Of a DNA stretch of 64,000 nt, positions 4,065 to 52,784 are shown piece after piece (position 1 is the stretch's first letter; every line of letters begins with the position of its first letter). This DNA is from a virus. Its lineage: Duplodnaviria > Caudoviricetes. Under the pieces are notes generated by a model, which was not told the origin of the DNA, ran no database searches, and was given only the letters and a program-made list of their open reading frames with translations. The DNA lies in IMG/VR virus record IMGVR_UViG_3300013426_000001, positions 74,524 through 138,523 of that record. One strand, 5' to 3'. The translations under genes and the position numbers were made by a program.

Positions 4065-4952
4065 ATGGGTGGCGGTAGTTGGACTACGAGTTCGTATACG
4101 TCTTATACGAAAACAAAAGGAATTAAAACTTCATGCTTAGCTGACGGAACCGTTACTCTTGACGCTTCTTACGATGCTCAAGATCTTTATACAGCGAGAA
4201 AACTTGATGAAGCACTTGATCCGAGGGGTGTTGTCAGAGAATGCGTAGATAGCGAGGAACACCCGAATACTATTCCTGTAATTCTTGCTCTTGACGTTAC
4301 TGGAAGTATGGGGAGCGCCCTCGAAGAAGTTTCAAAAAAACTTAACGCTATTATGACTGAAACATACAAGAAAGTAAAGGATGTTGAATTTCTTGTGATG
4401 GGTATTGGAGACCTTGCGTATGATAACGCGCCCATTCAGGCTTCTCAGTTTGAATCTGATATCAGAATAGTAGAACAACTTGATAAAGTTTATTTTGAAC
4501 GTGGCGGCGGCGGCAATAAATACGAGTCTTATACGGCTGCTTGGTATTTCGCCGTTAACCAAACGAAACTGGATGCTTGGAAACGCGGCAAGAAGGGTAT
4601 TTTAATTACTCTCGGAGATGAACCTCTTAACCCGTATTTGCCTAAAGAAGCTCTCAAAAGAGTGACTGGCAACGAAACGTTACAAGGGGACGTTGAAACA
4701 AAAGAATTGTATGACGAAGTAATCAAAAAATACGACGTTTATCATTTTGCGATTGATGACAACCACACTTGTTATAGATATTATAAAAATGACATCAAAG
4801 AAACTTGGGGAAAGTATCTTGACGATAATCACCTCAAAGTCGTTACTTTGAACGAACTTGCGGCGCAAATTGTAAACGCTATTACAGAATCTTCCGATTC
4901 CGCTATTGGCGGAACAGGAGTTTGCACTTCTACTGATGGGATTTCTTGGTAA
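4065..4952 (+). CDS. von Willebrand factor A (vWA) domain protein
   Basis: MIDAS motif ILALDVTGSM, EGGGG-like ERGGGGNxYESY, ITLGDE. Confidence 0.85.
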   Translation: MGGGSWTTSSYTSYTKTKGIKTSCLADGTVTLDASYDAQDLYTARKLDEALDPRGVVRECVDSEEHPNTIPVILALDVTGSMGSALEEVSKKLNAIMTETYKKVKDVEFLVMGIGDLAYDNAPIQASQFESDIRIVEQLDKVYFERGGGGNKYESYTAAWYFAVNQTKLDAWKRGKKGILITLGDEPLNPYLPKEALKRVTGNETLQGDVETKELYDEVIKKYDVYHFAIDDNHTCYRYYKNDIKETWGKYLDDNHLKVVTLNELAAQIVNAITESSDSAIGGTGVCTSTDGISW

Positions 4953-18031: not shown

Positions 18032-18555
18032 AATGTCAAATTTGCGGTAAATCAATCGACCGCTCAACTGCATATAAAGCCGTGATTGGCGGTGCGAATA
18101 AATATTTCTGCTCGGAAGAAGAATTCAACGCCGACAAAGCTCGCAAAGACCACGCGAAAGAAGTTCTCGAAACAATAGCAGAATGTTATCAATACTGCTC
18201 GGGTTATGGCGAGCCGCCGTATAACGTGGTTGGGAAAGAACTTAAAGATAACCTGAAAGCAATCGATGTTGAAGTGATTTACCAATTTGTAAAAGAAAAC
18301 CGCGAAAAGCTTAAAAAGACGGTCGACAAAAAAATCGAACGAGACGGACCGTTCGGGCAAGTTTATTTCGCGTTTCGGTATATCAGTGGGATAATTAAGC
18401 GAGAGATTCTCGAAAAAGATTGGAAGGCGAAACAAATTGCGCCCACAATTCAAAAAACGGGGATTGACTTGAATTTTTATAATATTAAACCGAACACAAA
18501 CCACTTAAAAAAAAGACGTTCGTTAGACGACTTGGAGGACGAGGTAAATGATTAA
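18022..18555 (+). CDS. Zn-finger protein, possible helicase loader
   Basis: CQICG..YFCSEEE; directly upstream of dnaB. Confidence 0.45.
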   Translation: MQVKCQICGKSIDRSTAYKAVIGGANKYFCSEEEFNADKARKDHAKEVLETIAECYQYCSGYGEPPYNVVGKELKDNLKAIDVEVIYQFVKENREKLKKTVDKKIERDGPFGQVYFAFRYISGIIKREILEKDWKAKQIAPTIQKTGIDLNFYNIKPNTNHLKKRRSLDDLEDEVND

Positions 18556-20119
18556 CAAAGAGGCTTTTATTGCTGGAGTATGTGACAAGATAGACGAAAG
18601 GCTTCTTGAAGACCGCGTTACAGTTGAAGGGAACGCCGTCTCGATCTTTTTACAAGATTTGACGAATTACAACGATATCAATTACAAACCTGAAGATTTT
18701 CTAACGAAAGACGGGCGGTTCCTTTTTTGCGTAGGAAAGTCGCTTCGTGATTTGGGATATAATTACCTCGATGAAGTGACGATTATGTCGAAATGCTCGC
18801 AGGAAATCAAAGATAGGATTTCCGCACTCGGCGGTTATAAGACAATTCAGCACCTTCTCGATGTCGTAAATGCCGAAAACGCCGATGCTATTCTTGATGA
18901 TTTGACGAAAAGCAATATTTTGGTCAAGCTTTATAAAAGCGGTTTCAATCTTTTCGATGAAGTAACACTCGATAACGGCAAGCGTATTTCACCGTTCAAG
19001 TTGTTTAGAAATTTCACCTCGACAGAAGTTCTCGATTGGTACGACGCAAAAATCAGCGGATTAAGCAAGGTGAATAATAACCAAATCATTTACGACGAAT
19101 ACGTCGACTTCGGCGAGAAGTTCATCTCGGATTTACAGAACAACGTCGACAGCGGTGTCTCGTTCGCAGACGCGGGCGAAGACATAAACGGCGACAAAAT
19201 CAGCGTCGCGCCCTTTTTGAGTAGTAATATACTCGGTCTTGCGCCTGGAACATTAAGCCTTTTCGGCGGGTTCAGTGGCGTTGGCAAAACGACTTATATG
19301 GTCGGGGTGATTATGGCACTCATTTCGCAGGGGAAGAAGGTTCTCGTCCTCGAAAACGAGATTATGAAGAACAAACTTTACCTCATGATTTTCAGTTGGT
19401 TCATTTCCCGTTATATGGGATATCAGAAACTCCCGAAGAAAAAGCTTGAATCGGGTGTTTATACCGACGAAGAGAAAAAGGTAATTACCGAAGCCGAAAA
19501 ACAGTGGAAAGAAAAATTTGCGGATAAATTGCGTGTTGTCGGTTTATCGTCGGCAAACTCGAAGTTAAGTTCTCAAATCATCAAAAACTCGGTTCTCCGT
19601 TCGGGGTTCGACGTCTTTATCGTCGATACGTTCAAACTCGACGATAGTGCGGACATAAACGGCGCGTTGTGGCAAGTAATGAAGAATAACATCAGCGAAC
19701 TCGAAGGGCTGACGAAGAAGTATGGAGTAATCGGTTTGGCGACGGTTCAGTTGACAAACAACGACTTAAAGAGGTTGTGGCTCGATTCAAGTTGTCTCGG
19801 AACATCAAAAGGTATAAAAGAAGTGTGTTCTAACCTAATTTTGCTCAGAAAGCTTGGGGGAGATTTAGAGTTAATTAACGGCTCGGATATTTACTGCCGC
19901 CCATTCCGTTCGAAAAAGAATGAGCAGGGCGACTGGATAGAAGAACCTTATGACGCAGACCCAAGCAAAGTTTGGAGAGTTCTTTTCATAGATAAATCAC
20001 GTTCTGGACCTGACAGCGGCGATACGGGTGTAGCGTATTTGTTGAGATATGACGGAGATCATTGCTCGTTTTATGAGACGGCAAAGTGCCGCCCTGTTAG
20101 GAAAATCATAAACGGATAA
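18548..20119 (+). CDS. dnaB: DnaB-like replicative helicase
   Basis: GGFSGVGKTT, FIVDTFK, TVQL, IDKSRSG. Confidence 0.88.
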   Translation: MINKEAFIAGVCDKIDERLLEDRVTVEGNAVSIFLQDLTNYNDINYKPEDFLTKDGRFLFCVGKSLRDLGYNYLDEVTIMSKCSQEIKDRISALGGYKTIQHLLDVVNAENADAILDDLTKSNILVKLYKSGFNLFDEVTLDNGKRISPFKLFRNFTSTEVLDWYDAKISGLSKVNNNQIIYDEYVDFGEKFISDLQNNVDSGVSFADAGEDINGDKISVAPFLSSNILGLAPGTLSLFGGFSGVGKTTYMVGVIMALISQGKKVLVLENEIMKNKLYLMIFSWFISRYMGYQKLPKKKLESGVYTDEEKKVITEAEKQWKEKFADKLRVVGLSSANSKLSSQIIKNSVLRSGFDVFIVDTFKLDDSADINGALWQVMKNNISELEGLTKKYGVIGLATVQLTNNDLKRLWLDSSCLGTSKGIKEVCSNLILLRKLGGDLELINGSDIYCRPFRSKKNEQGDWIEEPYDADPSKVWRVLFIDKSRSGPDSGDTGVAYLLRYDGDHCSFYETAKCRPVRKIING

Positions 20120-20203
20120 AAAAAATTTAAAAAAACCTCATAAAAACGCTTGACAAACAAAACAAGATGTGTTATAATAAATGCGTAAATTGGAGGTAAG
20201 GTT

Positions 20204-20338
20204 ATGGCAAGTTTATTTATCGCAGATTTCTTTTTAACAGTCGGGTTTATTCTCGGAATTAAAATTTGGATGAAGAGAACGGGCGATACCTTCCAAGAAG
20301 TTTGTATGAAAATAAGAGACGCGATTATGCGTAAATAA
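20204..20338 (+). CDS. 44-aa membrane peptide
   Basis: GGAGG RBS; MASLFIADFFLTVGFILGIKIW; after promoter 20150. Confidence 0.5.
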   Translation: MASLFIADFFLTVGFILGIKIWMKRTGDTFQEVCMKIRDAIMRK

Positions 20339-20347
20339 GGAGAAAAG

Positions 20348-20545
20348 ATGTTACCTGAAAGTATTAGAGATAGAGTTGTCGAAGAGCAGAACGAACTTCG
20401 CGACAGAATCACAAAACTTGCTTTGTTTGTTTACTCGGCGAAAATCGAAACCGTCGACGAAAAGCAAGTGAGATTGCTCAAACGTCAACTTCGTATTATG
20501 AGTGAATATGACGAAGTTCTGACAGAGCGGCTCAAAGCAGACTAA
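20348..20545 (+). CDS. small coiled-coil phage protein
   Basis: RVVEEQNELRDRITKL..QLRIMSEYDEVLTERL. Confidence 0.65.
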   Translation: MLPESIRDRVVEEQNELRDRITKLALFVYSAKIETVDEKQVRLLKRQLRIMSEYDEVLTERLKAD

Positions 20546-21240
20546 AATACAGGTGCCGAATACCAGAGACGTCGGGTCAAAAGGTCGGTTAAATGCGGGA
20601 TTATGCAAGCCTGAGAAAGCAACAACCTCTGAATTGGTGTAAGTGTGTATTAACACCGCCAGGATACGGCGGTATCCATGTAAGCAGGAAGTTGCAGGGG
20701 TCAACTAAAGGCGGCGGCTCGTTAAGCCGTGTAGCAACCCCTCAAAAACTCTATAATTGCACAGCGGATTGTAGATAATGGTGCGGCGCCAACAAGCCGA
20801 AATCAATGCAGTACGTAAGGGACTGATGGTTTACTGAGAAACAGAAAATCTCAAAGCTGTAAAAATATTTTAATAGGTGCTACGAAATCCTCTTAATTAT
20901 ACAAGAGCACTTAAAGTGTGACTTGCTTGCGTAATGACTTAAAGAACCTCGTTGAGTAGAGGTGGTCAGGGTTTAGTATCGAGGGAAAGGCGGTAGTAAA
21001 TGGAGTTGGACGAACAGCCTATATAGAGTTGATGGTGTAAAAATCTCTTAAAACCATCTTACGGAAAGATCCCCAAAAGGGACTGCGGGCGTTACGATTT
21101 TTTCCAGCGCCCACCGCTGACCAACATGCGGGATATAAGTGGCTGGGTCGACAAGTATCAAAAACAGGAATAACTCGAACTGTTTAGTTCCATCTCGGCT
21201 GGACGAGAGGTTTCTCCCCAAAGTACACGGGGATAGGGTT
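20546..21240 (+). ncRNA. large structured ncRNA candidate (GOLLD/ROOL size class, family unassigned)
   Basis: ~700 nt without an RBS-led ORF, more than 10 short hairpins, directly 5' of tRNA-Ser. Confidence 0.65.
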
Positions 21241-21246
21241 ATATGT

Positions 21247-21335
21247 GGAAACTTGCGAGAGTTGGTTTAATCGACTGGTCTTGAAAACCAGCGACCGTAA
21301 AAGGTCCGTCAGTTCAAATCTGACAGTTTCCGCCA
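21247..21335 (+). tRNA. tRNA-Ser(UGA)
   Basis: GGAAACT/AGTTTCC, anticodon loop CTTGAAA, long variable arm, TTCAAAT, GCCA. Confidence 0.95.
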
Positions 21336-21488
21336 CTCGCACGGCTTTATTGATTCCCTGAGCGAGGAAAAGCGAATCAATCGACAAACACGTCGTTAGA
21401 GTGTTCACTGTGCAGGTATCAGATTGGTTAGTATTACCTGTCGGATTGGTGTTTATCCGTCAATGAGGTGCAAACTCAAACACAACAT

Positions 21489-21562
21489 AGGCAATTAGCA
21501 CAAAAGCAGTGCAACCGACTTTGACTCGGTTTACGTTGGAGCGTTACCAGCATTGCCTGCCA
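21489..21562 (+). tRNA. tRNA-Gln(UUG), non-canonical D/T loops
   Basis: AGGCAAT/ATTGCCT, ACCGA-CTTTGAC-TCGGT, GCCA end; T-loop AGCGTTA. Confidence 0.85.
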
Positions 21563-21718
21563 TTATGCCGCACGTACTTTCACGCGGCGGGGAAGACGAA
21601 GAGAAAGCGGAGCTTGAGAAGTGCGCAAACGGAGTAGGTCGTGTGCGCAAGTCATTACTCATCAAGGCAATTACTTTGGTTAGGCGCAAGATTGCTACGT
21701 TTTTGCGAGGAGGTTTAT

Positions 21719-22828
21719 ATGAAACTTAATAAAGCATTTAAATTTAGATTATTGCCAAATCAAAATCAAATAGATCTCCTTGGAAAAACTTTTGGTTGTT
21801 GTAGATCTATTTATAATAAAATGCTTGAAGATAAAATCAAATATTATGAAGAGACAAAAAAGAATTTATCTGTAACTCCAGCACAATATAAACAAGAATT
21901 TGAGTGGTTAAAAGAAGTTGATTCTTATTCTTTGTGTAATGAACAGATGAATTTACAAACTGCTTTCAATAATTTCTTTAGAAACCCAAAAGTTGGCTTC
22001 CCAAAATTCAAAAGCAAAAAGAGTGACAAAAGCAGTTATACAACAAGCAATGTTAGTAATATAATTAGAGTTAACGATAAGCACCAAATTCATCTATGTA
22101 AACTTGGTTGGGTTAAATTTGTAGAACATCGAAAAATTCCAACTGATTACAAAATTAAATCAGTAACAATTACCAAAACTCCATCGGGGAAATATTATAT
22201 TTCAATTTTAACCGAATATGAATATGAAATCTCCAAAAGAGTTTTAGATAAAAACAAATCTCTTGGATTAGATTACAGCTCTCATGACTTTTATGTCGAT
22301 AACCAAGGCAGAAATCCAGAGCATTTACATCATTATTACAGAGATTTGCAAAACAAACTTGCTTTTCACCAAAGAAAACTTTCGCATATGGTTAAGGATA
22401 GCAACAATTATGCTAAACAGAAAATAGTTATTGCTCGAATACACGAAAAGATTTCTAATCAGAGAAAAGATTTCGTAGAAAAAGAATCGACGAAACTCGC
22501 AGACTTATACGACGTTATCTGCCTCGAAAATATTGATTTGTCAAATATTGCTCAATCGTTAAAACTCGGTAAAAGCACGTTAGATAATGCCTTCGGGACG
22601 TTCAGAAATAGATTAGAGCAAAAGATGATATTGCAAGGGAAATTGGTCGCCAAAATAGATAAGTGGTTTCCCTCAAGCAAACTTTGCAGATTTTGTGGTT
22701 GCATTAACAAAGATTTGAAATTGTCCGACAGGGTTTGGAAATGTGAATGCGGTAAAACTCTTAACAGAGATGAAAATGCTGCGATAAATATTCTTAACAA
22801 AGGATTAAAGCAATTGACAATAGCATAA
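21719..22828 (+). mobile_element. tnpB: full-length TnpB (IS200/IS605), no tnpA
   Basis: KAFKFRLLP HTH, GLD, CLENIDL, CRFC/CECG Zn finger, RDENAAINI; RuvC D-E-D intact. Confidence 0.95.
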
Positions 22829-22842
22829 AAATATGTTATAAT
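22814..22842 (+). promoter_or_regulatory. promoter overlapping tnpB stop, positioned to start at the omegaRNA
   Basis: TTGACA 22814, 17 nt, TGn-TATAAT 22837. Confidence 0.8.
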
Positions 22843-22972: not shown

Positions 22973-23136
22973 ATGGCTGTACACGTAACGGCAACGTGAC
23001 CGAATCGTAAGTGTCGGAAAGGAAATAAACCCTCAATTGAGGCAATCAACGACGGTTGAAAGCGAATGAATTGGGTTTGAGTTTTCGCGAAAGTGCTCTA
23101 ACTTTATTGTGAGTTCAAATCTCACCAGCCATTCCA
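22973..23136 (+). ncRNA. 164-nt tRNA-like RNA with expanded central domain
   Basis: ATGGCTG/CAGCCAT+TCCA, D arm CACG/CGTG, T arm GTGAG-TTCAAAT-CTCAC, ~110 nt between D and T arms. Confidence 0.75.
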
Positions 23137-23266
23137 CCACCCTGCGGTAGGTATACATACGCGCAGTCCGAAGCTATTGGCGGATATGGAATTTGTGTAT
23201 AGCTAACACACTACGACGGAGTGGACGGGATTTCCCGCGTACCAGACAAAAGAAACCACTCCACCA
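23137..23266 (+). ncRNA. post-tRNA structured RNA motif, copy A
   Basis: CACCCTRCGG..TCCGAA..TGGCGGATA..ACGAC..GACA shared with 23344-23464. Confidence 0.6.
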
Positions 23267-23343
23267 CGGGGTGTAGCGCAGCTTGATAGCGCGTTCGGTT
23301 TGGGACCGAAAGGTCGGAAGTTTGAATCTTCTCACCCCGACCA
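23267..23343 (+). tRNA. tRNA-Pro(UGG)
   Basis: CGGGGTG/CACCCCG, TTCGG-TTTGGGA-CCGAA, ACCA. Confidence 0.93.
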
Positions 23344-23558: not shown

Positions 23559-23634
23559 AAATATTTTTAGAAACCGTGTTATTTTGCTTGACACGGTTTC
23601 TTTTTTGTGTTATACTTATCTCAAAGGAGATTTT

Positions 23635-26001
23635 ATGGAAAACCAAGAAAATCAAAACAAAATCACGGGATATTGCGTGCCGACTCGCTTAATTTACCCG
23701 AAAGTCCCGATCGAGGAGTTCGTCCCAGGGAGCTGGGGGCTTCTCGAAGTCGACGTGGGGCAGATATTACAAGGGTCGTTTCCAGCGGGGTTTAGCAAAA
23801 ACGGTTGGTTCCCAACGGTCGTGTTCAAAGGGGCGCTCCCGCCGATTGACACCGAGAAAACGTATTACTTCGAGGTCGAAATGGTCGCGGACGCGAAAAG
23901 CCCGTATAAAGTCGGGTTTAACATTTTGTTTATGACGCAGAGGGTTCGTTTAACAAAGTTTGAAGAGCAAAAGCTTTTCCTCGAAAGCATTTTAACCGAA
24001 CACCAAATCGACATTTTATACGAAGAACTCGTCGACCCGTTCGAAGCGATCGACAGCGGGGATATATTCCTTCTCTCAACTGTAAAAGGGATTGGCGAGA
24101 AAACAGCAGAGAAAATCGTTGAAACGTATAACCGCACCAAAAAGGACGCAAACGCTTTTCTCGTTCTCCGAGAAGAGTTCGGGTTGACTGACGCGGCGGT
24201 GACAAAACTCCAACAACGTTATCTCTCGACAGACACGATAATCGCGAAACTTCGAGAGAACCCATACGAGTTAATGACTCTCGACGGTTACGGGTTCAAA
24301 AAGTGTGATGCACTCGCGCTCAAAGGCGGAATGGCAAAAGACGCGAAATTCCGAGTCCGAGCTTACGTCACGCACTTTTTAACCGACCAAGCCGAGATGG
24401 AGGGAAATTCGTGGATTTATCTCCGCGACCTTTTACACGGTGTGGTTGAGTTTATCCCATCGATAAAGAAGGAAATCTTCGCCGAATGGCTTAAAGAGTG
24501 GTCGGGAAGAATTGATTCGGATGAAACCGTGTTTTTGTACTATGACGAAGAACAGAAGAGGATTGGGTTAAAACACTATCGTGAACTTGAAGAAAACATC
24601 ACTGAAGAAGTTTTCAGGTTACTTAACGCGCCGAAAAAAGATTTGAAGAAATACCGTTTTACAATCGAGGATGCGATTAAAGAATGCGAACAGGAAAATG
24701 GGTGGGAGTACACCGACGAACAAAAAGCAGTAATTTACGGTTGTTTGGAAAACAATATAAGTATAGTAACAGGTAGGGGCGGCAGCGGCAAAAGTACTAC
24801 AATGAAACCGATCGCAAGATTTTGTGCCGCTAATAGATTGTCGGTCGCGCAAACAGCGTTATCTGGGCGAGCCGCGTCTAACTTATCAGAGATAACAAAT
24901 ATTGAAGGCAAGACGATACACAGACTTTTAGGTTATAATCCAAAAGCGGGCGGGTTTGCTTATGATAAAGATAATCCGATTTCAGAAAATGTTGTTATCG
25001 TCGATGAGTTATCAATGAACGATAATGAATTGTTATATCGGCTGTTGCAATCAATACCAAACGGAAGTAAAGTAATTATGTTGGGTGACTACGCACAACT
25101 TGAGCCAATTTCGAATGGAAATTTCCTAAAAGATTGCCTCGATACAAACGCCGTGCCATGTTACCGCTTAACCAAAATTCATCGTCAAGCTCAGAAGTCA
25201 GCAATCATAATCGAATCAATCAAAGTCTCGAATGGGCAGCAGATAATCGGTAATTCGGAAATTAGTGAAATAAGAGGCGAACTCAAAGACCTTAAAATCG
25301 TGACTTATAAAGATGCGGATTTATCGCGAGTGAAATTCCTCACGGAATACCGAACGCTTTTACAGCAAGGGGTTTCGCCTAACGATATAATTGGCGTCGT
25401 CCCGATGAAGTTGCGTGGCGCGATGTCGAGTTTCGCGCTCAACAACGACGTGCAAAAATTCGTCAATCCCGATGAACATTTACCCAGCATCAAGTTGGCG
25501 GCAGATAAAGACAAGTATTACACGATAAGACTTGGCGACCGCGTAATTAACCGCAAAAACCATTACGACACGATTACGCGTGTGGTTTACGAAAGATACG
25601 GGTTTGACAAAGACAACCCCGTTGAACCGATATACAATGGAAATCTCGGTTTCGTTACCGATATACAGGAAAATTACATCGTTGTGGATTTTAAGCAGCA
25701 AGGCGAGGTCGTGATACCGAAGGCGTATTGGGAAGATGTGCTTCTCGGTTACGTCGTTACGACGCACAGCTTCCAGGGGAGTCAGTCGCCTTACGTTGTG
25801 GTCGGATTAGATATGTCGGCTTACATGCTCTTGTCACGAGAAATGCTTTACACGGCGATTACGAGAAGCAAGAAATATTGCGTTTTGGTTGGGCAGATAA
25901 ATGCCATTAAAAAAGCGACTTCGATTAGCCGCGTCTCGGTAAAACAAACGTGGCTTAAAGAATTATTATTAGAAAAAGGAGGTAACAAAAATGGGACGTA
26001 A
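23635..26001 (+). CDS. recD2: RecD2-like SF1B helicase
   Basis: HhH VKGIGEKTA, GRGGSGKS, TIHRLL, VDE, HRQA, THSFQGSQ, YTAITR. Confidence 0.92.
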   Translation: MENQENQNKITGYCVPTRLIYPKVPIEEFVPGSWGLLEVDVGQILQGSFPAGFSKNGWFPTVVFKGALPPIDTEKTYYFEVEMVADAKSPYKVGFNILFMTQRVRLTKFEEQKLFLESILTEHQIDILYEELVDPFEAIDSGDIFLLSTVKGIGEKTAEKIVETYNRTKKDANAFLVLREEFGLTDAAVTKLQQRYLSTDTIIAKLRENPYELMTLDGYGFKKCDALALKGGMAKDAKFRVRAYVTHFLTDQAEMEGNSWIYLRDLLHGVVEFIPSIKKEIFAEWLKEWSGRIDSDETVFLYYDEEQKRIGLKHYRELEENITEEVFRLLNAPKKDLKKYRFTIEDAIKECEQENGWEYTDEQKAVIYGCLENNISIVTGRGGSGKSTTMKPIARFCAANRLSVAQTALSGRAASNLSEITNIEGKTIHRLLGYNPKAGGFAYDKDNPISENVVIVDELSMNDNELLYRLLQSIPNGSKVIMLGDYAQLEPISNGNFLKDCLDTNAVPCYRLTKIHRQAQKSAIIIESIKVSNGQQIIGNSEISEIRGELKDLKIVTYKDADLSRVKFLTEYRTLLQQGVSPNDIIGVVPMKLRGAMSSFALNNDVQKFVNPDEHLPSIKLAADKDKYYTIRLGDRVINRKNHYDTITRVVYERYGFDKDNPVEPIYNGNLGFVTDIQENYIVVDFKQQGEVVIPKAYWEDVLLGYVVTTHSFQGSQSPYVVVGLDMSAYMLLSREMLYTAITRSKKYCVLVGQINAIKKATSISRVSVKQTWLKELLLEKGGNKNGT

Positions 26002-51537: not shown

Positions 51538-52784
51538 AAGCTTATACCTCCTTTATTTGCTCGTTAGCGGCGCTTCTGCTCACTCACCCAGAACAGACAG
51601 GGAATGGAAACATCCGCGTTGTTACGCAGTGCGGATGTAAGGCTGCGTCGAACTATCTTTCAAGTTCGATTAAGCGGCGTTCAACCGCTTTTGCGACTTC
51701 CCAGTCGTGAGCTTTGCGTGCTCTTTCGAGCCACGTCGTGAGCTTTGACTTGTCAGCCGTTTGACGTATGTAATCAAACACGTCCATTTCGTTCACCTCC
51801 TTTGACTTAAAGCTCTTCCTGTTCGCATTCGAGCTGATATTGGTCATCAACTCCGATGCTGGAAAGGAATTCAGCAACCATATCGGCTGCTTGCCTTGCC
51901 GTCTTTGCGCAAAAGATGCGAGAGAGGCGTACTTCATCGTTCGTGTCGAGTAACATGATCTTGAAAGTGTAACCTTTCAGCATTTTGGTACCTCCTTTTT
52001 TTGTGCTTTTAGCCAGCCAGCTGTTACGATTTACGAAAACGTAACTTGCCGAATGCTTGCTCGGGCTTGTGACCGAGCTGCCGCATTAACGCCTTTCGGC
52101 GCCACTCTGCGTAGTGTTTTTTACGTGGTTATCGCTTCCACGTCTTGTGTTAGTCTACTATCTCTATTTTGCCGTGTTTTTTCAAAAGTTCAACTTGTTT
52201 CATCATTTTTTCAAATGACGAATAAATGCAGAAATAATCATTTTTAGGATCGTCATGCATAATTTTGAGTTGGAAGTTATCTAAGCCTTTGTAAAATTTG
52301 AAACCTTTAATCATTTTAGGTTCCTCCGTTCTTTATTCCGTTAGCGGTGCTGTTGCTCACTCACGAAGAGCAACCATCGAAGCAGTTTTACATCTTACTT
52401 GGGATGTAATAATGTATTTCGCTTATAAAATAAGGTAATTTACATTATCTTAATTCACTTTTATTACTATATATAGTATATGTTATCCCTTTTCACACTC
52501 AACTCAGAATTCCTCCCCCACTAATTAAAGACGCCCAACTCAAAACACCATCCCCTCCTCAAATTCCAACCCGCGTAACCACCCATTCCCATTTTTTGAA
52601 CCCCAATTCTCAATCCACCTCAACCCTCCAAACGTCTGGACAATTTCACATTTACATTCACCCACCTAAAACCTTTACCCTTTTGCCCCCTCTTAAAAAA
52701 AAATAAAAAAAATCAAAAATCCCCCCAAATCGCTTGACAAATCCCCTTCCCTGTGTTATACTATACTCAAACAAGGAGGCAATT

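Follow-up and report, generated by a model that had tools for sequence, protein, structure and literature searches.

The DNA analysed here is a window of 64,000 nucleotides that forms the second half (positions 74524-138523) of a 138.5-kb IMG/VR phage record, which is complete and bears direct terminal repeats; all coordinates below are counted from the first nucleotide of the window unless they belong to a named relative. In the replication module of this phage, an ORF-free region lies between a gene for a DnaB-like helicase (18548-20119), which flanks a tRNA island upstream, and a gene for a RecD2/exonuclease V-like helicase (23584-26001), which flanks it downstream. The island opens with a consensus sigma-70-type promoter on the + strand (20150-20178; TTGACA-17-TATAAT with TG), in which 12 of 12 hexamer positions match, followed by a 44-aa ORF (20204-20338) and the gene for a 65-aa protein related to crAss001_48 (PF21825; 20348-20545, + strand), which is the final protein gene ahead of a 700-nt gap. 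After this gap come tRNA-Ser(UGA) (21247-21335, + strand; detected by ARAGORN and the Rfam tRNA model), tRNA-Gln(UUG) (21489-21562), an IS605-type TnpB gene (21719-22828, + strand) with HTH_OrfB_IS605, OrfB_IS605, and Cas12f1-like TNB domains, tRNA-Pro(UGG) (23267-23343), and, after this last tRNA, a hairpin with a T run that resembles an intrinsic terminator (23569-23601, + strand) and closes the island. No terminator-like site was found between the promoter at 20150 and position 23569, and, as far as can be judged from sequence, this promoter is likely to be the start of a unit comprising the two small ORFs, the RNA modules described below, and the tRNAs. A further perfect promoter (12 of 12) at 22814-22842 overlaps the final codons of TnpB, and in relatives of this phage TnpB or an IscB/HEARO RNA is located elsewhere in the island (L002, 8054-9222; L004, 9935-10135; L003, 4483-4687).

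The 700-nt gap had been described, from the letters alone, as a stretch without an ORF at the head of the tRNA island, and we agree on both counts: it ends directly 5′ of tRNA-Ser, and nothing credible was found in it under three genetic codes. The longest ORF in 20546-21246 under code 11 encodes 61 aa from an ATG start (20593-20778); it has no match among PHROG families, has no comparable ORF listed in the close relative L006, and spans three module boundaries. When TAG was translated as Gln, or TGA as Trp (code 4), no long or convincing frame opened. That the stretch hides protein-coding sequence, either as small ORFs or as a recoded gene, could be argued from the 61-aa ORF and from the recoding of stop codons in some gut phages, but the results just given, together with the absence of suppressor-type tRNAs from the island and the way in which substitutions track predicted helices, leave this explanation scarcely credible.

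Each of the 11 stem pairs listed by the sequence-only reading was found in its place, and most (AGGGGT/ACCCCT, CGGCT/AGCCG, TGAGA/TCTCA, GATGGT/ACCATC, AAACAG/CTGTTT, and TCCCC/GGGGA) lie inside helices that carry compensatory or G-U changes among homologues. Relative to shuffled sequence, the folding energy of the whole region has a z of −1.66 for the + strand and of −0.59 for the − strand; the z values of single modules range between −0.3 and −2.9 and do not stand out from shuffled controls either. Because these scores are not significant, the case for structure must rest on comparison with homologues.

Comparison of the window with Rfam 15 at gathering score reported only tRNAs and a distant twister-P5 ribozyme, and nothing credible appeared in 20546-21246 even at E ≤ 10; weak matches to sR43, DUF805b (11.4 bits, over the 3′ end of module X), and Hrs1 were taken as chance. 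ROOL (RF03087; 574-position covariance model, at least 99.1 bits) had no match in the region at gathering score or at E ≤ 10, nor in the whole 138.5-kb genome, and GOLLD (RF02032; 416-position model, at least 150 bits) had none in the window or the whole genome. The ROOL scan had a positive control, ROOL being detected in L117 (354 bits) and L124 (116 bits), whereas the GOLLD scan had none. ARAGORN and the Rfam tRNA model, which picked up the flanking tRNAs as usual, gave no tRNA or tRNA-like signal in 20546-21246, even with the cut-off at E ≤ 10. Further, none of the Rfam ribozymes (hammerhead, HDV-like, twister, twister-sister, pistol, or hatchet) was found at E ≤ 10 over 20300-21750 or 20860-21050. 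The type-P5 twister (RF02684) found elsewhere in the window, at 52061-52111 on the − strand, scores 58.2 bits against a gathering score of 37.6, which indicates that the scan is able to detect ribozymes. A blastn search with the 701-nt region against 50,697 GenBank phage records gave no match, and a literature search by signature strings and by topic returned no description of these RNAs.

We compared about 100 related loci and, to collect homologues of the parts of the region, scanned IMG/VR, JGI/ENA metagenomes, and GTDB genomes with sequence patterns. Five phages with a 98%-identical helicase have only patches of the 700 nt in common, and each patch was recovered separately by the scans, in many unrelated contexts. 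These patches are referred to below as modules A, B1, B2, X, and C and the hairpin at 21024-21058. In one phage with a 98%-identical helicase (L005), the helicase gene leads straight to tRNAs without any module; in another (L003), A, B1, the hairpin, and C are present, and B2 and X are absent. In other phages, the order is X, tRNA-Tyr, B2, tRNA-Asn (L013), or B2, X, Y2, X (L062), or B2 is fused directly to C (L057). These arrangements show that the modules, as delimited by sequence, are gained, lost, and re-ordered independently, as tRNA genes are. The linkers between modules, read directly from the sequence, are short and A/U-rich.

The sequence-only reading had proposed one ornate RNA of about 700 nt in the manner of GOLLD and ROOL, with the modules then being domains with variable peripheral parts. 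Such a molecule would fit one contiguous, ORF-free, helix-rich stretch beside tRNAs and the 277-nt block covering B2 and X that L008 and L029 have in common, and ROOL and GOLLD are indeed located near phage tRNA islands (PMC12286853), i.e. in the same niche. The parts of a single RNA would be expected in a fixed order as one unit, but B2, X, C, A, and B1 were found separate, re-ordered, or interrupted by tRNAs, and no conserved long-range helix between modules was found; a single ornate RNA is thereby excluded as the main reading. The modules have sharp ends, nearly identical phages are without B2 and X, or without all of the region, and the Rfam searches that find ROOL in other contigs do not find it, or GOLLD, in this genome. 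We therefore regard one 700-nt RNA as very improbable. What stands of the likeness to GOLLD and ROOL is a non-coding region with structure on the + strand and linkage to tRNAs, situated in the genomic niche of ROOL; the single large molecule and the family match do not stand.

Further cassette types recur in variable order in L029, L037, L039, L062, and others. Among these, a Y2 cassette reads ATAGTGGTGCTTCACTAC...GTTAAATGATTACACGCAAGTTTCAAGCCACTAT, a Z cassette reads AAAGGTTGCATACCGCC...GGGTAAATGTTGGAGG, and a short-hairpin cassette reads AAAGTTTGAGCAGGGAACTT...GCTCGATT. Related arrays (L073:6865-6939 and L005:8405-8482) contain a tRNA of the suppressor type, with anticodon UUA, and another whose anticodon was called with 4 bases.

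Module B2 (20745-20863, + strand) is a predicted RNA of about 119 nt with helices P1 (9 bp), P2, P3, and P4. The 36 copies collected, 32 of them distinct, come from human-gut contigs and from gut phages of large size; among whole phage records, three carry B2, with a single strong match in each. A full-length model of P1-P4 and the conserved linkers (model R1) scores the window copy at 136.3 bits, the window sequence being part of the seed. The ends of B2 are sharp: at least five kinds of unrelated upstream flank and three kinds of downstream neighbour (tRNA-Asn, tRNA-Gln, and the X module) were seen, and about half of the copies lie 8-10 nt upstream of tRNA-Asn. Over the 32 distinct sequences, the helices are 94.5-100% paired (98.9% of cells overall), and the cells that are not Watson-Crick pairs are mostly G-U. 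Changes on both sides were seen in seven pairs, e.g. UCUAUAAU/AUUAUAGA to UCCGUAAU/GUUACGGA, and P2 occurs as CGGC/GCCG, CCGU/ACGG, CAGU/ACUG, and CAAC/GUUG. Double-change cells number 45 compared with 13.9 in shuffles (0 of 500), a count that in part reflects shared ancestry, since the sequences are 85-93% identical and B2's own model was used to fit the alignment. The P1 loop (ACAGC) and the 3′ end (GCUGU) could form a pseudoknot; this pairing is compatible with 100% of the sequences, slightly better than the competing local helix P4a (94.5% paired).

Module X (20873-21022, + strand) belongs to a widespread family, of which a motif search returned 54 distinct instances. With the model of this family (R2), one X was found in the window, at 20871-21024 (67.9 bits, E = 8.5e-15), with all scaffold features present. 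Helix P1 consists of GG/CC, three freely covarying base pairs, and an invariant U-G pair, with up to five pair types per position; P2 consists of C-G, Y-R, A-U, and C-G and goes on after a GA(A) bulge, and the junction is UGC. The 3′ strand carries a conserved, purine-rich internal loop of 20 nt, U(U)AAAUGGRG-N5-KGAACA. At the tip of P2 is a structured, hypervariable insert of 40-150 nt, of which more than 30 unrelated versions were seen. The scaffold is 94.6% paired compared with 81% in shuffles, and double-change cells number 52 compared with 14.3 (0 of 500). X was also found in MAG contigs labelled Clostridia, Lachnospiraceae, Christensenellaceae, Acutalibacteraceae, Bacillales, Bacteroidales, and others, nearly always within tRNA arrays, where it often fills a tRNA-sized slot, about 4-25 nt from the tRNA on either side. 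For example, in L086, tRNA-Pro is followed after 8 nt by X (taken with 5-nt flanks) and, after a further 13 nt, by tRNA-Arg; L075 has the order tRNA-Leu, X, tRNA-Ser; and in L117, X lies between tRNA-Leu and tRNA-Tyr. Within one bacterial family, X was present in 1 of 81 genomes, a rarity more suggestive of mobile or phage cargo than of a core gene. ROOL was found inside the tRNA arrays of MAG contigs that also carry X (L117:2950-3517 and L124:1-455, both on the − strand), in L117 about 70 nt from the X homologue. In L091, a 278-kb Christensenellaceae MAG contig without tRNAs near X, a DUF3800-XI RNA motif (RF02975, 39.5 bits) lies at 4393-4437 (+ strand), about 10 nt downstream of X; the other neighbours are uninformative.

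Module C (21061-21246, + strand) is a predicted multi-stem RNA, present in the window in a short form of 186 nt and in other phages at 163-254 nt. Its 3′ end is exactly at the 5′ end of tRNA-Ser, and the RNase P site of this tRNA would set the 3′ end of C. An alignment of nine copies has changes on both sides in 11 of 51 predicted pairs, e.g. CCGC/GCGG to UAAC/GUUA, AACAG/CUGUU to AACC/GGUU, and CCCC/GGGG to ACCU/AGGU, the last in a stem that bears a conserved AAGUACA loop. The helices contain about 56 G-U cells compared with 6 A-C cells. In several relatives (L057:1035-1100, L006:9047-9100, and L003:9190-9241), a short tRNA-like element made up of acceptor stem, D arm, and T arm and without an anticodon arm, e.g. 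GCCCAAG...GGTTCGACTCCAATCTTGGGCA, lies 3′ of C, where the window has the normal tRNA-Ser instead. For B2, X, and C alike, homologues are shown in many gut phage or MAG contigs, and in each of the three the predicted helices are kept by compensatory changes.

The remaining modules, A, B1, and the hairpin at 21024-21058, have few homologues each and one or two compensatory changes each. Module A (20550-20613, + strand) is a compact predicted RNA of about 64 nt, in which a closing stem (CAGG/CCTG) is followed by UGC, a stem (CCG-AAU-ACC/GGUCGG) round a small hairpin, UUAAAUG, and a 3′ loop; the minimum free energy fold gives the same stems. Both layout and motifs are those of the Y1 cassettes of other phages. 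The closing stem is CTCGG/CCGAG in close relatives and the Y1 stem is CTG..ACC/GGTCAG, both differences being compensatory, so that each of the two stems of A has compensatory variation. A viral scan for A/Y1-type cassettes with GGTGCYGAWTACCAGA gave 64 pattern matches and one new true copy. The window-specific hairpin block that follows (20614-20695, + strand; GGTGT/ACACC and GGATAC/GTATCC; z = −2.89) is specific to this phage, its relatives having different sequence at this place. B1 (20696-20742, + strand) is a 47-nt nested hairpin with AGGGGU...ACCCCU round CGGCU/AGCCG; it lies upstream of B2 in nine loci, occurs without B2 in L003, and has the compensatory variants CGGAT/ATCCG (L003) and TGGGGT/ACCCCA (L006). 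In the small hairpin at 21024-21058 (+ strand; GAUGGU/ACCAUC; z = −2.15), L003 has GGTGGT/ACCACT, a compensatory change from A-U to G-C, and a second pairing, GAG/CUC, would make a possible pseudoknot.

A and X have the motifs UGC, GU(U)AAAUG, and AGCC in common. These motifs and the similar layout, which are the grounds for the comparison, may point to a common origin of A and X within one superfamily, and the X model (R2) did not detect A. The strings GUUAAAU, AAGCC, and AGGUGC, which X and A share, are also short strings of the pistol ribozyme, which likewise combines a hairpin with a conserved linker. We rejected pistol membership of X and A, as the architecture of pistol requires that the P1 loop form a pseudoknot with the P2/P3 junction and that a GU cleavage junction lie between P3 and P2 (PMC4604425), the order of elements in X is different, and the Rfam scan reports no ribozyme family there, pistol included, at E ≤ 10.

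The frequency of G-U and the rarity of A-C in the helices of B2 and C are what would be expected of RNAs read from the + strand, not of DNA hairpins. This bears on whether the region could consist of DNA-level features or debris without an RNA role, such as recombination scars, decayed tRNA genes, or folded-DNA sites of the attC type that shuffle cassettes. The cassettes are indeed shuffled, and the island is a hot spot of recombination and insertion, with TnpB here and IscB/HEARO or TnpB in relatives. The string GUUAAAU also fits GTTRRRY, the core of integron attC sites. However, the inverse core RYYYAAC is absent from X, no integrase is found among the flanking ORFs scanned, and neither ARAGORN nor the tRNA model gives a tRNA-like signal. 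Further, phages whose flanks are unrelated conserve both the sequence and the helices, and the asymmetry between G-U and A-C is specific to RNA. We consequently give an explanation at the level of DNA very little credence.

A stronger alternative is that the modules are cis-acting parts of the maturation of the tRNA operon, serving either as self-cleaving ribozymes or as structured spacers that guide precursor processing or protect it. The modules are closely fitted between tRNAs; like small ribozymes, B2 and X contain unpaired nucleotides that are highly conserved, and B2 likely has a pseudoknot; and a twister-P5 ribozyme is present elsewhere in the window. Moreover, gut phages do employ HDV-like theta ribozymes, small structured RNAs like the modules, beside their tRNAs, from which only a few nucleotides separate them in gut viromes (PMC10879173). 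The theta ribozymes are minimal HDV-like folds, however, and the modules have no match to an HDV family in Rfam, the helix order of B2 lacking the HDV P3 hairpin. No known ribozyme class was found at E ≤ 10, many phage tRNA arrays, including that of the close relative L005, do without these modules, and the hypervariable inserts of X are hard to square with a pure processing signal. We consider a cis-acting role unlikely, though clearly less so than the single RNA or the DNA-level features.

The reading that we favour, and hold to be probable, is that the 700 nt are an operon-like array on the + strand, composed of at least four independent small RNAs (A, B2, X, and C) and the hairpins B1 and 21024-21058, which would be co-transcribed with the tRNAs and released by tRNA-processing enzymes. 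Co-transcription with the tRNAs is inferred from the promoter and the sole terminator-like site, which bracket the island, and from the short A/U-rich linkers. We propose that transcription from the promoter at 20150 would take in the two small ORFs and the tRNAs, that host enzymes of tRNA maturation (RNase P and those of 3′-end processing) would excise modules at the adjoining tRNAs, that endonucleases would cut the A/U-rich linkers, and that the modules would then persist as stable small RNAs. The most speculative step is that they may act in trans during infection. In such a role, the purine-rich internal loop of X and A might be a platform that binds a protein or an RNA, and the hypervariable insert might be the rapidly evolving part, with a function in phage-host conflict or in the takeover of translation. 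The invariant X loop, the hypervariable insert, the many paralogous cassette types, and the rapid gain, loss, and shuffling would fit trans-acting RNAs under conflict-driven selection, and we rate such a role, itself a guess, above a purely cis-acting processing or ribozyme role. In its fullest form, this proposal is that X, and perhaps A and Y-type cassettes with the UGC, GU(U)AAAUG, and AGCC core, may constitute a new, widespread class of trans-acting phage RNA, in which a two-helix "handle" and the 20-nt loop would draw in a factor of the host or the phage, the insert would evolve in an arms race, and release would occur by tRNA punctuation, with B2 and C as two further new classes in the niche of ROOL and GOLLD; this we advance only tentatively and hold to be more doubtful than not.

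ROOL, like the modules, is a non-coding RNA of phages and prophages near tRNA islands whose function is unexplained, but it is one molecule of about 580 nt with its own conserved fold, whereas the modules measure 47-190 nt and are mutually independent. GOLLD is likewise a structured (and large) phage RNA, often beside or around tRNAs; the region, in contrast, has no single conserved 3′ core and splits into separate families. The tRNA region of phage T4 yields two small RNAs with an unexplained role (PMC3014915), and these RNAs, RNAC and RNAD, being small non-tRNA RNAs inside a phage tRNA cluster, are probably the closest analogy for how the modules may be made, although B2, X, C, and A, which stem from gut metagenomic phages, are folded differently and no sequence relationship is expected. 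Phage tRNA islands are known, from ROOL, GOLLD, and RNAC/RNAD, for enigmatic RNAs, and of well-supported families without a match in Rfam 15, the present locus contributes at least three (B2, X, and C). Because X is frequent in the tRNA arrays of gut phages and MAGs and has both an invariant core and a hypervariable insert, it is an easy target for RNA-seq, pulldown, and structural work, and it could reveal what the non-tRNA cargo of tRNA arrays does during infection. For annotation, the locus teaches that a long ORF-free, helix-rich stretch beside tRNAs should be split with the help of relatives before a giant RNA is called.

Finally, we note that two other non-tRNA stretches of the island, one upstream of tRNA-Pro (23110-23266) and one downstream of tRNA-Gln (21559-21616), are 76-95% conserved in the tRNA arrays of unrelated phages (L006, L008, L011, and L013) and are probably further RNA modules.
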